Of a DNA stretch of 64,000 nucleotides, positions 5,925 through 59,590 are shown one piece after another. The stretch comes from a virus. The notes beneath the pieces are model-generated. The model saw nothing but the letters and a program-made list of their open reading frames with translations, was not told where the DNA came from and made no database searches. Where the stretch lies: positions 6,346-70,345 of the IMG/VR virus record IMGVR_UViG_3300021368_000007; one strand, written 5' to 3'. A program made the position numbers and the translations under genes. Each line of letters begins with the position of its first letter. Positions within the stretch are counted from its first letter, which is position 1.

Positions 5925-6594
5925 ACTCTCTTATAAAATTAGCTCTAATTTGTTCGAGTGGTAGAATTGCTGGTGATGCCTTATCTCTTCCACCAGGATA
6001 TGTTAATGCTGCATTTCTAATTGCCTTAGACATATCAAGCAATTGATATCTCATGAATGAATCATCAATTATACTTGTGCCCCACAAAATAGCAACTCTT
6101 CTTCTACCAGATGTCACAGGAAGAACTTGATGTCTCAATCCTGTTGGATAAATTAGACATGTTCCTGCTGCTGGTTTATATCCATACTCTTGATCACCAA
6201 GAGTAATTGCTAGTTGTCCTCCCTCATACTCATCAGGTTCACTGAGAAAAATACTCATACTATGATGTGTCAGGAGACCACCAATAGACACATCATCAAT
6301 ATGTGTTTTATAAAATCCTCCCTCACGATACTCAGAAAAAATAGGAGGAGTCATCTCTTTCAAGAGATACACCTGATTAAAATCTTCTGATTTTCGCAGT
6401 CCTTGTTGAACTAATTCAATACTCTTACGATATTGCGATGAAGTGTTCTCCATCGCATAACTATCCTTAGTGCTGGTGTCTACATCATTTTTGCCAGCAT
6501 ATTGCACTTTTCCTGGTTTTAATGTAGCAGTATCAAAGTAATGATTTATTTTGTTTACCTGTTCTTTGGTAAGCACTTCACTTTCATAGATCAT
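5911..6594 (-). CDS. PKHD-type Fe(II)/2OG hydroxylase
   Basis: YKTHIDD...SIFLSEPDEYEGGQL...YPTGLRHQVLPVTSGRR. Confidence 0.9.
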   Translation of the reverse strand: MIYESEVLTKEQVNKINHYFDTATLKPGKVQYAGKNDVDTSTKDSYAMENTSSQYRKSIELVQQGLRKSEDFNQVYLLKEMTPPIFSEYREGGFYKTHIDDVSIGGLLTHHSMSIFLSEPDEYEGGQLAITLGDQEYGYKPAAGTCLIYPTGLRHQVLPVTSGRRRVAILWGTSIIDDSFMRYQLLDMSKAIRNAALTYPGGRDKASPAILPLEQIRANFIREYGNL

Positions 6595-33203: not shown

Positions 33204-33285
33204 TGTCGGTAAGAGGACTTGAACCTCCACGTCATAAGACACTGGAACCTAAACCCAGCGCGTCTACCAATTCCGCCATACCGAC
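33204..33285 (-). tRNA. trnL: tRNA-Leu (TAG)
   Basis: GTCGGTATGGCGGAATTGGTAGACGCG-CTGGG-TT TAG GT-TCCAG, long variable arm, GGTTCAAGTCC T-arm. Confidence 0.95.
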
Positions 33286-33288
33286 ATA

Positions 33289-33360
33289 CTCCCAAGGCAG
33301 GATTTGAACCTGCGACCGAGTGATTAACAGTCACCAGCTCTGCCACTGAGCTACTTGGGA
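33289..33360 (-). tRNA. trnN: tRNA-Asn (GTT)
   Basis: TCCCAAGTAGCTCAGTGGCAGAGC-GGTGA-CT GTT AA-TCACT...GGTTCAAATCC cloverleaf. Confidence 0.95.
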
Positions 33361-33361
33361 A

Positions 33362-33479
33362 TGGAGGAGGTTCTTAGGATGCTAGTAAACCAGAAGAGTA
33401 GCTACTCTCCCCAAACGCCCAACCAAGCAGGTTGCAAGCAATTTGCTCGGGGTATTACTAATAACTTCATTGAACCTCC
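33362..33479 (-). ncRNA. putative structured ncRNA with acceptor-like stem and encoded 3' CCA
   Basis: 5' GGAGGTTC pairs with GAACCTCC-T-CCA at the 3' end, and there are several internal stems. It sits between tRNA genes. Confidence 0.55.
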
Positions 33480-33562
33480 TTTTCACTACTCCCTGCTATA
33501 AGAGGGATTCTAGTGTTGGGGCGCTTCCGCGTAAGGGAAGATCTTTTGTTTGTACTCCCCAA

Positions 33563-33635
33563 TGGAGAATAGGAGACTCGAACTCCTGACAGCCTGCTTG
33601 CAAAGCAGGTGCTCTACCAACTGAGCTAATTCCCC
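33563..33635 (-). tRNA. trnA: tRNA-Ala (TGC)
   Basis: GGGGAATTAGCTCAGTTGGTAGAGCA-CCTGC-TT TGC AA-GCAGG...GTTCGAGTC, with the G3:U70 pair. Confidence 0.95.
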
Positions 33636-33637
33636 AG

Positions 33638-33709
33638 AGCCCCTGACAAGATTTGAACTTGCGACCTGAGCTTTACAAAAGCCCTGCTCTACCACTGAGC
33701 TACGGGGGC
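33638..33709 (-). tRNA. trnT: tRNA-Thr (TGT)
   Basis: GCCCCCGTAGCTCAGTGGTAGAGCA-GGGCT-TT TGT AA-AGCTC...GTTCAAATC, with one C6:A67 acceptor-stem mismatch. Confidence 0.9.
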
Positions 33710-57010: not shown

Positions 57011-57643
57011 TTATAGACTCCATGCTTCGGTGATAATTGGGAACTGCTCTGCAAAAATGCGTTTGCATTCCAGGGCAATGTCCATGTGTTCTTTCTGTGT
57101 ACCATTTGCAGATCGCAGATCTATATAGTGCATCCAACTGCGAAGATTGCCTGTCATAAAGAGACGAGTAGGAACAGCAAGAGGAAGCACAAAACGGGCA
57201 CACTCTTTAGCAATCCCTTGGCGAAGAAGCTCGTTATAGAGATCAAGGCTCTCAGTAAAATGTCTCTGAATCTGCCCCTGTAGTACAGACTTCTTTTCGG
57301 GGCTGATATCATCCACTGAATTTTGTCTATTCTTGTGATCCTGAGATCGAAGATCTGGGATAGGAATCTCTTGGGAGAGAAGGTTTGTGTCTGCATAGCG
57401 TTGCGAAAACTCTTGGAAAGTAAAGCTACGATGACGGAGGATTTGAGCCGCGATGCCGCGTGTTGTATTAATTTCGAGAGTCATATGTGCTTGCTCGAAC
57501 ACCGACCAGTGTCCATGTTTGATGCAATATGACAGAAGCTTTGCGTAGTTAGGGTTCTCCTGGTTTGCTGGGTTGCTTACGCGAGCGATGTAAGCAATGG
57601 TTTTCTCAGCATCAGGAGTAACAGAAATCAGATTGATGTTCAT
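57011..57643 (-). CDS. thyX: FAD-dependent thymidylate synthase
   Basis: ARVSNP, HWSVFE, QILRHRSFTFQEFSQRY, ARFVLP. Confidence 0.97.
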   Translation of the reverse strand: MNINLISVTPDAEKTIAYIARVSNPANQENPNYAKLLSYCIKHGHWSVFEQAHMTLEINTTRGIAAQILRHRSFTFQEFSQRYADTNLLSQEIPIPDLRSQDHKNRQNSVDDISPEKKSVLQGQIQRHFTESLDLYNELLRQGIAKECARFVLPLAVPTRLFMTGNLRSWMHYIDLRSANGTQKEHMDIALECKRIFAEQFPIITEAWSL

Positions 57644-57831: not shown

Positions 57832-57992
57832 CAGTCGGGGTCTCCATCGTCATCATATTGTTCTCCATATTTATATTTCTCATCAACAGAATGGTCTAGA
57901 TACGATTGAGTGTCGGCATAAACCTCAGTCTTTAAGGACTCTACAAGCAGTTCAAGGTTTTTTACAATGAGCTTCAGTCTATTCTTCTCCAT
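57831..57992 (-). CDS. cyanophage-type hypothetical protein
   Basis: MEKNRLKLIVKNLELLVESLKTEVYAD...YDDDGDPD. Start placed downstream of the promoter. Confidence 0.7.
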   Translation of the reverse strand: MEKNRLKLIVKNLELLVESLKTEVYADTQSYLDHSVDEKYKYGEQYDDDGDPD

Positions 57993-58014
57993 AGATTCAC
58001 AGAATAATATGGTC

Positions 58015-58050
58015 ATTATAAGATAAAAAAAGGGGCATGTCAAGTGCCCC
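58015..58050 (-). promoter_or_regulatory. consensus sigma70 promoter fused to an intrinsic terminator
   Basis: GGGGCA-CTTGACA-TGCCCC-TTTTTTT hairpin, which also reads TTGACA-17-TATAAT. Confidence 0.85.
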
Positions 58051-58207
58051 TATCATTCACATTCCAGAAAGAAAGTCCAAGTGACTTGAGATTAACCCAC
58101 TTGGCGTAGTGTACACCACGATACGTTAGGAACGCAAAAGTTCTTTCTGGATCGTGTTTATCAGGGTCATATTCTGGAAGATCATACTCAATTCTGATCT
58201 TCAGCAT
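58040..58207 (-). CDS. DUF4278-like small protein (55 aa)
   Basis: Translated by hand: MLKIRIEYDLPEYDPDKHDPERTFAFLTYRGVHYAKWVNLKSLGLSFWNVNDRGT, with the LTYRGVxY motif. Confidence 0.7.
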   Translation of the reverse strand: MLKIRIEYDLPEYDPDKHDPERTFAFLTYRGVHYAKWVNLKSLGLSFWNVNDRGT

Positions 58208-58209
58208 AA

Positions 58210-58305
58210 TTACCCCTTCTTCAGTAGAAGAAGTTCACTATAGATCATGCCAATGAAAGCAACACATGCTAGGGATGTGAATCCAACTACTTGTAGTGTT
58301 TGCAT
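58210..58305 (-). CDS. 31-aa hydrophobic (membrane) peptide
   Basis: Translated by hand: MQTLQVVGFTSLACVAFIGMIYSELLLLKKG. Fits exactly between two ORFs. Confidence 0.55.
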   Translation of the reverse strand: MQTLQVVGFTSLACVAFIGMIYSELLLLKKG

Positions 58306-58310
58306 GGCGA

Positions 58311-58478
58311 TCACTTAGCGTAAGATGTGCCACGATAGCAGAAGACACCACGGGTATCTTTTGCTTCCACGCACTTAGTATCATACTTCACACCACGATA
58401 GGTAGTGTGAGTGATCTGAGCATCGTGAAGGGCAGCAGCTTTGTTGATCTGCTTGCGAATGAGATTGAGTGTGTTCAT
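58311..58478 (-). CDS. DUF4278 'downstream peptide' (55 aa)
   Basis: Translated by hand: MNTLNLIRKQINKAAALHDAQITHTTYRGVKYDTKCVEAKDTRGVFCYRGTSYAK. Two YRGxxY motifs and an AGGAG RBS. Confidence 0.8.
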   Translation of the reverse strand: MNTLNLIRKQINKAAALHDAQITHTTYRGVKYDTKCVEAKDTRGVFCYRGTSYAK

Positions 58479-58519
58479 TGTAGGTCTCCTAAAGGATGAG
58501 GTTTTTAATCCCCGTTCCT

Positions 58520-58690
58520 TCAGTCGTTTGCGTCCCAGTAGAACTCACACTCGGGTGCCGATTCCCTTACGGTCTCTACCAATTCAATAACTACATGTGG
58601 AGGTAGTTCTGACTGGTTCTTAGAGATTCTTAGCATTAAAGCATCAGCATCTCTGCAACTGAGTGTTGTATACAATAAGAGTTCTACCAT
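58520..58690 (-). CDS. 56-aa protein nested in riboswitch unit 2
   Basis: Translated by hand: MVELLLYTTLSCRDADALMLRISKNQSELPPHVVIELVETVRESAPECEFYWDAND. GGAG upstream; Cys12 and Cys48. Confidence 0.7.
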   Translation of the reverse strand: MVELLLYTTLSCRDADALMLRISKNQSELPPHVVIELVETVRESAPECEFYWDAND

Positions 58691-58725
58691 GGGATGAACG
58701 CTCCGTTCCGCGACTTACTTGCGTC

Positions 58726-58926
58726 TTATACTAGGGTCTGTTCACATTGACCTTCTACTTTCGATCTAAAATAACCTAGTAGATTATATTTAGAACGTCG
58801 ATCCAAATTGTCATCCATAAGGATTTCAATTCGTTTCTGTAAGAACCTTTCACACGACATGTGCCACCCATAAGGTGAGTCGTCGGCATGATGGGCAAGG
58901 GTCAATGCCAGCAGAACGCTGAGCAT
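58726..58926 (-). CDS. 66-aa protein nested in riboswitch unit 1
   Basis: In the ORF track. Hydrophobic signal-like N-terminus; Cys25 and Cys61. Confidence 0.7.
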   Translation of the reverse strand: MLSVLLALTLAHHADDSPYGWHMSCERFLQKRIEILMDDNLDRRSKYNLLGYFRSKVEGQCEQTLV

Positions 58927-58946
58927 AAGATGAACGACTGGTATAC

Positions 58947-58992
58947 ATTATACCATAGTATGTATGAGATGTCTATTGTATCATGTGATACA
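58947..58992 (-). promoter_or_regulatory. NtcA box adjacent to a sigma70 promoter
   Basis: TGTATCA-CA-TGATACA (GTA-N8-TAC, 58977-58992) immediately upstream of TAGACA-17-TATAAT. Confidence 0.8.
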
Positions 58993-58997
58993 ATTTA

Positions 58998-59327
58998 TTA
59001 TCTCTTAATGTGTTGAATGTCGTGCTCAAGTGCTGACAACTGACATCTAATGATATCACATGCCAACTTTGCATTACGGAAATCACCACAGGTATAAACA
59101 TCACACGCTGCTTTACCTTCTTCTGGCCAAGTGTGGATACTGATGTGACTCTCTGCCAACATCAAAATACACGTTACTCCTTGTGGAGAAAACTTGTGGG
59201 ATGCGACATTCAACACAGTCATTTTAGCACAATACGCTGCGCTGTCAAGCAACTCTCTTATAAAATCTTCGTCGTCTAACTTCTGTTCATCACAACCATA
59301 AAGGTTTAACAAATAGTGGTCGCCCAT
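58998..59327 (-). CDS. speD: S-adenosylmethionine decarboxylase proenzyme
   Basis: HKFSPQGVT...LAESHISIHTWPE...DVYTCG, including the E|S self-cleavage site. Confidence 0.95.
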   Translation of the reverse strand: MGDHYLLNLYGCDEQKLDDEDFIRELLDSAAYCAKMTVLNVASHKFSPQGVTCILMLAESHISIHTWPEEGKAACDVYTCGDFRNAKLACDIIRCQLSALEHDIQHIKR

Positions 59328-59590
59328 TACATCAACCAGAACGAATCGTTTCTACCTAAATTACACTTTCTAATTTTAATATCATATCCATTTTCTTGGA
59401 ACCACTTAGCATCAGGGAATGCCTTCTTCAGATTAGAATAAAAATATACTTCCGAGTAATACTTGGCAGATACCACAACACCATTGGTATTAATGCGTCG
59501 CATTACTTTTGGATTGGCAGCATCTCCATGCTTCCAATACTGAATACAAAAAGTATTTTGTGTACTACTTGGTTGACCTGTTGTGCTCAT
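59327..59590 (-). CDS. hypothetical protein
   Basis: ORF coupled to both neighbours (TAATG / ATGA). Confidence 0.6.
   Translation of the reverse strand: MSTTGQPSSTQNTFCIQYWKHGDAANPKVMRRINTNGVVVSAKYYSEVYFYSNLKKAFPDAKWFQENGYDIKIRKCNLGRNDSFWLM

Follow-up and report, generated by a model that had tools for sequence, protein, structure and literature searches.

Riboswitch aptamers are usually treated as compact non-coding domains, the glycine riboswitch is a tandem riboswitch aptamer, and group I and II introns hold open reading frames (ORFs) in peripheral loops whose closing helix must still form. The locus considered here lies in a 64,000-nucleotide (nt) stretch of cyanophage DNA (positions 6,346 to 70,345 of the IMG/VR record IMGVR_UViG_3300021368_000007), called the window hereafter, whose positions are used throughout. 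At 58512-58936 its minus strand carries a composite RNA of ~425 nt, with two CGUUCA...GGAACG units and two small ORFs, upstream of a DUF4278 peptide gene; as judged from its letters, the element is a relative of the glutamine riboswitch. The comparisons described below make it fairly probable that one composite glutamine riboswitch heads this phage operon, with nested cores enclosing two genes and with a suggested reciprocal control.

In the available text of Klahn et al. (2018; PMC6212724), the leader of gifB (IF17) of Synechocystis is a Glutamine-I riboswitch, for which an ON switch via a tail pairing with the ribosome-binding site (RBS) is proposed. For Glutamine-II, the portions available of Huang et al. 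(2019; PMC6698751) describe a solved structure with a GGAACGG pseudoknot, a C:G long-range pair and an aptamer that can be assembled from two RNA pieces. The glnA RNAs 'occur in tandem' according to the accessible part of Weinberg et al. (2010; PMC2864571), and the literature on glutamine riboswitches, in its accessible parts, mentions glnA matches in cyanophages. Genes inside the aptamer and a nested double core are not described in the available text of the literature on glutamine riboswitches and cyanophages, of which the supplementary tables (Klahn et al. 2018; S-CREM1 Table S7) may list phage matches, and Ames and Breaker (2011) tandem forms. What is new at the present locus is the interlocked topology together with the nested genes, while the glutamine riboswitch family is known.

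Read from 5' to 3', the order of the locus is promoter, CGUUCA, the P2 helix with ORF1, CGC-AAGUA-AGUCG-C-GGAACG (to 58704), the GAG linker, a second CGUUCA, a stem of 14 base pairs (bp) with ORF2, and CGC-AAA-CGACU-GAA-GGAACG-G (to 58512). The predicted parts of the RNA are as follows.

58931..58936, minus strand: CGUUCA of core 1, its CGUUC being the 5' strand of outer P1; invariant in 279/279 readable occurrences
58922..58930, minus strand: 5' arm of P2, UCUUAUGCU, which holds the ORF1 start codon (sequence, fold, covariation)
58726..58926, minus strand: ORF1, 66 amino acids (aa), phrog_6471 (E 7e-38), in the P2 loop; hydrophobic N-terminus and two invariant Cys
58724..58732, minus strand: 3' arm of P2, AGUAUAAGA, which holds the ORF1 stop codon (sequence, stop-codon covariation)
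58716..58723, minus strand: CGC, equivalent of the ligand-contact and long-range-pair nucleotides, then AAGUA, an E-loop strand; aligned to CGGAAGUA of RF01739 in relatives
58711..58715, minus strand: 5' strand of P3, AGUCG, pairing with CGACU of the core-2 tail
58701..58709, minus strand: GGAACG of core 1 (5' strand of the inner helix) and the GAG loop (variant pair, linker statistics)
58695..58700, minus strand: CGUUCA of core 2, its CGUUC being the 3' strand of the inner helix (sequence, fold, variant pair)
58679..58694, minus strand: 5' arm of the inner hairpin, UCCCA, a UG bulge and GUAGAACUC, which holds the ORF2 start codon (sequence, fold, compensatory changes)
58520..58690, minus strand: ORF2, 56 aa, phrog_504 (E 3.6e-23)
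58533..58546, minus strand: 3' arm of the inner hairpin, GAGUUCUAC then UGGGA (sequence, fold, complementarity in relatives)
58527..58532, minus strand: CGC-AAA of core 2; CGC in 185/187
58522..58526, minus strand: 3' strand of P3, CGACU, pairing with AGUCG of the core-1 tail
58512..58521, minus strand: GAA (E-loop strand, overlapping the UGA stop of ORF2), GGAACG (3' strand of outer P1) and G (partner in the long-range pair); G after GGAACG in 187/187

The initial annotation had placed a glutamine-riboswitch relative upstream of the DUF4278 gene and expected it to match Rfam once the loops were gone. Natural ORF-less relatives were used in place of loop-deleted sequences, and scores were read against the Rfam cut-offs of 35 bits for RF01739 (Glutamine) and 33 bits for RF01704 (Downstream-peptide). 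ORF-less relatives with a short second core (n = 7 loci) scored 38.4-42.9 bits on RF01739 in 5/7, which bears out both expectations. Each of the RF01739 alignments above the cut-off spans both cores, using CGUUCA, the hairpin and CGCAAGUA of core 1, the P3 stem and GAAGGAACG of core 2, with the core-1 CGUUCA aligned to P1 of the family. Short first cores reached 34.3 bits on RF01739 and ~27 bits on RF01704, and the short relatives scored 21.5-34.0 bits on RF01704, one of them, a short second core, being above the cut-off at 34.0. Matches to the two families were confined to sources with a short core (3/9 in one set and 8/20 in another), and ORF-bearing cores gave none. At the level of sequence comparison, the glutamine-contact residues of the solved type-I and type-II structures are kept in both cores, namely C1, G2, the G and C of CGC and the C-G-G of GGAACGG; the roles of residues in ligand contact and long-range pairing are taken from PMC6698751.

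Glutamine-I (RF01739) shares with the phage element the P1 strands CGUUC/GAACG, a hairpin after the A, the E-loop AAGUA/GAA flanking P3 and the same ligand-contact nucleotides. P2 of the window is such a hairpin after CGUUCA, with a 201-nt gene as its loop. The gifB leader, as given in the available text of PMC6212724, also shares the position upstream of a DUF4278 gene and a tail able to pair with the RBS. Unlike in Glutamine-I, the phage P2 holds a 66-codon gene and P3 holds a second, permuted core and a 56-codon gene; in the phage RNA the long-range pair is of the type-II form, C:G, and the window is invisible to the Rfam model. The element also differs from the gifB leader in being phage-borne, phage being mentioned 0 times in the accessible portion of PMC6212724.

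With Glutamine-II (RF01704), in the parts of its description that are available, the phage RNA shares the letters CGUUCA-hairpin-CGC...GGAACGG, the C:G long-range pair and the marine picocyanobacterial occurrence upstream of DUF4278 peptides, and the two-piece assembly of that aptamer fits the far-apart halves in the phage RNA. However, no type-II P2 helix directly flanking GGAACGG was found in the phage RNA, the scores are mostly below the cut-off (22-34 vs 33 bits), and the best-supported phage fold is nested, in contrast to the Glutamine-II pseudoknot. Like tandem aptamers, as far as the accessible accounts describe them, the phage leader has two ligand-type cores and one expression platform, but its cores are interlocked, one within P3 of the other, each carrying a gene. 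The intron ORFs are comparable in that a protein gene lies in a loop of a structured functional RNA; unlike them, the phage RNA is a putative metabolite sensor and not a ribozyme, its genes are not endonucleases or maturases, and start and stop codons lie within the closing helices.

Both ORF-closing stems named in the initial annotation can be read directly in the sequence. UCUUAUGCU and AGUAUAAGA form a 9-bp stem of eight Watson-Crick pairs and one G-U pair around the 66-aa ORF1, whose ATG and TAA fall in the 5' and 3' arms, respectively, and the core-1 tail, CGCAAGUAAGUCGC-GGAACG, ends at 58704. Around the 56-aa ORF2, UCCCA (58694-58690) pairs with UGGGA (58537-58533) and GUAGAACUC (58687-58679) with GAGUUCUAC (58546-58538), giving 14 bp; the last codons of ORF2 (W-D-A-N-D-stop) are read through the core, across CGC-AAA-CGACU-GA, before GGAACG (58518-58513). 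Each stem is present in the unconstrained minimum-free-energy fold of its unit, as evident from folding unit 1 (−75.3 kcal/mol, z −4.54, 0/200 shuffles equal) and unit 2 (−55.7 kcal/mol, z −2.85, 1/200 shuffles equal).

That pairing is maintained across the nested genes, as had been proposed, is evident from compensatory changes in both stems. In the pair counts for P2, made on a predefined structure named by the analyst, 86.2% of the cells are paired, as compared to 27-53% with the partner shifted out of register; covariation scores 0.218 as compared to 0.142 in shuffles (reached in 0/500), and both-side changes occur in 96 cells as compared to 46.5 (0/500 shuffles with as many). A single pair of columns, 13/264, reads CG 41, UA 26, UG 3 and other 1 (n = 71). 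The cognate P2 arms bind at −10.27 kcal/mol as compared to −6.40 kcal/mol for non-cognate arms, with 0/5000 permutations as good. The stop codon of ORF1 covaries with the leader before its ATG, UCUU going with UAA (16) and UCUC with UGA (8), and UCC-type leaders with UAG making up most of the remainder. At the UCCCA/UGGGA base of the inner hairpin, compensatory changes are found at 5/5 pairs, which 0/500 shuffles reach, and the arms of this hairpin are complementary in 160/162 unique arm pairs.

Purifying selection acts on the enclosed ORFs, which are real genes. No long hairpin lacks an intact ORF (83/83 for the first and 177/177 for the second), the ratio of nonsynonymous to synonymous polymorphism (pN/pS) is 0.29 for ORF1 and 0.42-0.49 for ORF2, and variation peaks at third codon positions; the claim that hairpins which are normally short here enclose whole genes is thereby upheld. 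Comparison of the ORF1 and ORF2 profiles gave a probability of 95% (E 3.5e-8) with both cysteines matched, and the two are therefore paralogues. Both PHROG families, phrog_6471 and phrog_504, are families of unknown function. The ORF2 protein is modelled as a small three-helix fold with a predicted local distance difference test score (pLDDT) of 81.6, which had no match among PDB folds (best E 5.8), and Pfam gave no family; a search of the Atlas with ORF1 returned only viral hypothetical clusters.

The layout is widely conserved. By blastn the region was found in 415 phage records, all of them from Synechococcus/Prochlorococcus phages or cyanophages, and both motif pairs occur in the same layout in 17/17 of the phage-record loci fetched, so that both CGUUCA...GGAACG units of the initial annotation stand, read on the minus strand and conserved across cyanomyoviruses. 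Isolates with this layout include Syn9, S-CAM1 and S-IOM18. Among IMG/VR loci reached via ORF2, 52/55 have this layout and the other three are cut at contig ends; among those reached via ORF1 (best 80 of 317 relatives), both flanks are present in 79/79 complete loci, including two with a variant motif. When 120 loci were gathered by a 20-nt core motif, blind to the ORFs, the first and second hairpins were short/long in 80, long/long in 26, short/short in nine and long/short in one, four being cut by contig ends. All four combinations of ORF presence and absence thus occur, with the same core letters as in the window, and the ORF-bearing forms are the majority, ORF2 being present in 106/116 complete loci of this sample. 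Even the synonymous sites in the final codons of ORF2 show no change of the core letters; the stop of this ORF is the UGA or UAA belonging to the core tail in 167/177 copies. A third CGTTCG...GGAACG pair found downstream in two loci (L047, L052) lies inside coding sequence and was rejected as a chance match.

Another explanation is that the ORFs are passengers only, the riboswitch controlling DUF4278 alone while small genes sit in tolerant loops, as ORFs do in group I introns, with stems kept for aptamer assembly and no meaningful glutamine control. ORF presence changes often, with at least 22 gains or losses of ORF1 on a 150-sequence tree as compared to ~50 with shuffled labels, where 22 is a rough value from a FastTree tree of ~400 columns. 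The flanks of both hairpins are identical, and recombinational cassette exchange would therefore be possible; a homing-endonuclease gene is also found between the cores in Sf-CH5. Against this stands the linker, where GAG is present at the start in 152/157 loci with ORF2 and in 0/8 without it; joined to GGAACG it reads GGAG, a Shine-Dalgarno (SD)-like motif 10 nt ahead of the ORF2 ATG. Start codons moreover lie within the stems in most relatives, and translation of ORF2 must cross P3 and the E-loop. Physical interference between ribosomes and the fold is therefore hard to avoid, and regulatory use of that interference is a conjecture. The passenger explanation is accordingly considered unlikely, though it has a real share of the probability.

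From the comparison of relatives, the predicted RNA emerges as a single aptamer of the type-I three-way-junction kind; the tip of its P3 bears another core in circularly permuted order, while ORF1 occupies P2 and ORF2 the inner hairpin. Outer P1 is formed by CGUUC of core 1 and GAACG of core 2, and the inner helix by GAACG of core 1 and CGUUC of core 2 across the GAG loop. P3 (AGUCG/CGACU) is flanked by the E-loop halves AAGUA and GAA; in the window it encloses ~185 nt, and its E-loop letters align to RF01739 in relatives. One aptamer spanning both cores also explains why AAGUA is confined to the first tail and GAA to the second. P3 is paired in 1038/1040 cells from 208 distinct contexts (0/5000 permutations as good), with three compensatory types, AGUCA/UGACU, AAUCG/CGAUU and AGACU/AGUCU. 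The sole change of a P1-type strand among 296 occurrences is a core-1 GCAACG that comes with a core-2 CGUUGA, seen in two contigs from two samples with the outer strands unaltered; the inner helix survives this double change, whereas both helices of side-by-side units would be disrupted, which supports the nested fold. Compensatory change is hence seen in four separate helices: P2, the base of the inner hairpin, P3 and the inner helix. For outer P1 the support is indirect: both strands are present and pair in the minimum-free-energy fold, but they are invariant, and support comes via the double change of the inner helix. The 425 nt of the window fold at −136.2 kcal/mol in the nested form, which is the minimum-free-energy fold, as compared to −133.4 kcal/mol side by side, and the nested form is also the minimum-free-energy fold in 5/7 ORF-less relatives.

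These results displace the two independent tandem units of the initial annotation, since the Rfam alignment spans both units, P3 joins their tails, the double change lies between the cores and the minimum-free-energy fold is nested. Two minimal glutamine aptamers lying side by side, each with its own P1 and sensing separately or cooperatively, would account for the presence of CGUUCA, a hairpin, CGC and GGAACGG in every unit alone, and for single short units scoring 22-34 bits on RF01739 and RF01704, one short second core reaching 34.0 as compared to 33 on RF01704. Pairing within a unit could also form transiently, as GAACG of core 1 is transcribed before CGUUC of core 2. Yet a complete E-loop needs both units (AAGUA from tail 1, GAA from tail 2), the covarying P3 between the tails would have to form a double pseudoknot, two mismatches would arise from the GCAACG/CGUUGA variant, and the side-by-side fold lies 2.6-4.9 kcal/mol above the nested one in free energy; such an arrangement is therefore quite improbable.

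Two variations touch the same helices. In three loci (L203, L201, L204) a variant first tail, AAGUA-AGCCGACUC-GGAACG, misfits the P3 pairing, and the second tail repeats AGCCGACU. The homing-endonuclease gene, as annotated in the record, lies at 656-1228 of the Sf-CH5 locus (L009), and one is likewise placed in L049, L050 and L060 (591-nt gap); being between the cores, it falls inside the P3 loop of the nested fold.

Upstream and downstream of the nested aptamer, the following features complete the operon, in the order promoter, RNA, DUF4278 peptide, short hydrophobic ORF, second DUF4278-like peptide and terminator.

58947..58975, minus strand: sigma-70-type promoter-like site, with TG before the −10 box; TAGACA, 17-nt spacer, TATAAT, 11/12 matches
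58486..58496, minus strand: UCCUUUAGGAG, complement of the tail CUGAAGGA, overlapping the DUF4278 SD and read as the expression platform (tail and partner letters in relatives)
58311..58478, minus strand: DUF4278 (IF17-like) peptide gene, 55 aa, starting 34 nt past 58512; phrog_545 (E 3.8e-32), YRG motifs
58210-58314, minus strand: hydrophobic ORF, 34 aa, GTG start, between the two DUF4278-type genes (ORF translation)
58040-58207, minus strand: second DUF4278-like gene, 55 aa, YRG-type, phrog_6192; weak DUF4278 match, E 0.2
58031..58051, minus strand: terminator-like hairpin followed by a T run, where the second DUF4278-like gene ends (sequence)

The 34-aa hydrophobic ORF may encode a membrane peptide belonging to this operon. 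In relatives, an A in the tail is met by U in 40/40 cases and a G by C in 35 or U in 30. This tail/anti-SD pairing fits the ON-switch model proposed for gifB in the available text of PMC6212724. An extra GC-rich hairpin of ~25-30 nt lies between the aptamer and the anti-SD/SD region in several relatives (L002, L012, L019, L026 and others), and in the window a perfect TTGACA-17-TATAAT at 58043-58015 overlaps the terminator-like hairpin.

A mechanism may be drawn from these parts. Without ligand, the last tail CUGAAGGA would pair with the SD region of DUF4278 and block it. Glutamine would stabilise outer P1 and the E-loop, free the DUF4278 SD and turn the IF17-like peptide on. The same ligand-folded state would hide the start codon of ORF1 in P2, the GGAG of ORF2 in the loop of the inner helix and the start codon of ORF2 at the base of the inner hairpin, so that the nested genes would be turned down at high glutamine. 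Conversely, ribosomes translating these genes would open P2, P3, the E-loop and the inner hairpin and thereby reset the sensor. Since the fold holds the start signals and ribosomes on ORF2 must pass P3 and the E-loop, folding and translation are expected to be mutually exclusive. A reciprocal glutamine-gated translation switch of this kind, in which the ligand closes the start signals of the nested genes and opens the IF17-like RBS while ribosomes erase the fold, is put forward as a tentative proposal with the odds rather against it.

RNA-library contigs from four libraries of three studies span 58100-58940. One 451-nt RNA-library contig of a relative covers the entire element and stops at 58940, where adapter sequence follows directly; this end, 7 nt past the −10 box and 4 nt ahead of CGUUCA, is a weak hint of the 5' end of the transcript. 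Joints in the RNA libraries that skip ORF2 were considered as processing and rejected, since they bear other loop letters and are read as short-hairpin alleles of other phages. The stretches left uncovered by RNA, 57950-58047 and (in three runs) 58979-59400, are no evidence of silence. The −10 box TATAAT is centred in a palindrome, GGTATA..TATACC, on the minus strand of the window at 58940-58954, and relatives retain a palindrome at the −10 box with other arm letters (GGTCT/AGACC, TGGTA/TACCA, GGAGT/ACTCT). If the RNA starts at about 58940, this palindrome would be a feature of the DNA, possibly a regulator site. Compared with the NtcA-box consensus, GTA-N8-TAC, it reads GTA-N7-TAC in the window and so has a spacer shorter by one base.

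Several points weigh against the reading of the locus as one composite glutamine riboswitch with nested genes. The window has no glutamine-family Rfam match at gathering or permissive thresholds, and scans of its own genome gave nothing on RF01739 and only a 4.7-bit fragment on RF01704. In whole-record scans of five phage genomes, 0/5 were over the cut-off, Syn9, S-CAM1 and S-TIM5 having no glutamine-riboswitch match at the locus and S-CAM1 giving, at other places in its genome, only two matches of 13-14 bits, below the cut-off. The failure of the window to reach the RF01739 cut-off is attributed to the ORF inserts, and that covariance searches would miss the locus through them had been foreseen. 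Some P2 pairs are often open (31/70, 19/71 and 28/71 cells), and RNAalifold run de novo on the unit-1 alignment recovers P1 and not P2, a miss put down to short insertions and deletions within the arms. Covariation in the long extension of the ORF2 stem is weak (−12.17 vs −11.52 kcal/mol; 29/5000 permutations as good). A different minimum-free-energy fold is obtained for 2/7 ORF-less forms and, as the P1-type strands are otherwise invariant, the choice of the nested fold rests on one event (2/296), P3 and 2.8 kcal/mol. Downstream, the PF14105 match of the DUF4278 gene is below its cut-off (23.7 vs 25.3 bits, E 6.3e-5), and a simple anti-SD motif is unmatched in 53/159 downstream regions, the pairing, with longer complements, having come by duplex folding. 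The RNA-library contigs prove neither transcription nor translation, and glutamine is a putative ligand on sequence grounds.

The missing Rfam match of the window, for which sensing is predicted from sequence, might also suit a relic, whose ORF-bearing forms no longer sense and whose half-motifs are kept because a gene cassette uses them as signals for recombination, processing or translation initiation, but the constancy of the core letters, which extends to synonymous sites in the final ORF2 codons, compensatory change in the four helices and the prevalence of ORF2-bearing forms in the motif-based sample make this highly improbable.

The neighbouring genes, both on the minus strand, are a ThyX-like ORF at 57011-57643, so named from reading its translation, and an S-adenosylmethionine decarboxylase gene at 58998-59327 (PF02675, 125 bits). 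Elsewhere in the window, a cluster of four tRNA genes lies on the minus strand at 33204-33709.

The composite glutamine riboswitch proposed here would be a metabolite sensor of ~425 nt with two genes inside its own helices, in which competition between ribosomes and aptamer folding is directly testable. It also marks a blind spot of standard annotation, the locus being silent in Rfam though 415 phage records match it. If abundant marine cyanophages carry a glutamine-responsive module ahead of a gene for a glutamine-synthetase inhibitor homologue, this would bear on how phages sense and steer the nitrogen metabolism of the host. If the reciprocal switch is true, the nitrogen status of the host during infection would decide, through a single RNA, which of two sets of small proteins is made.

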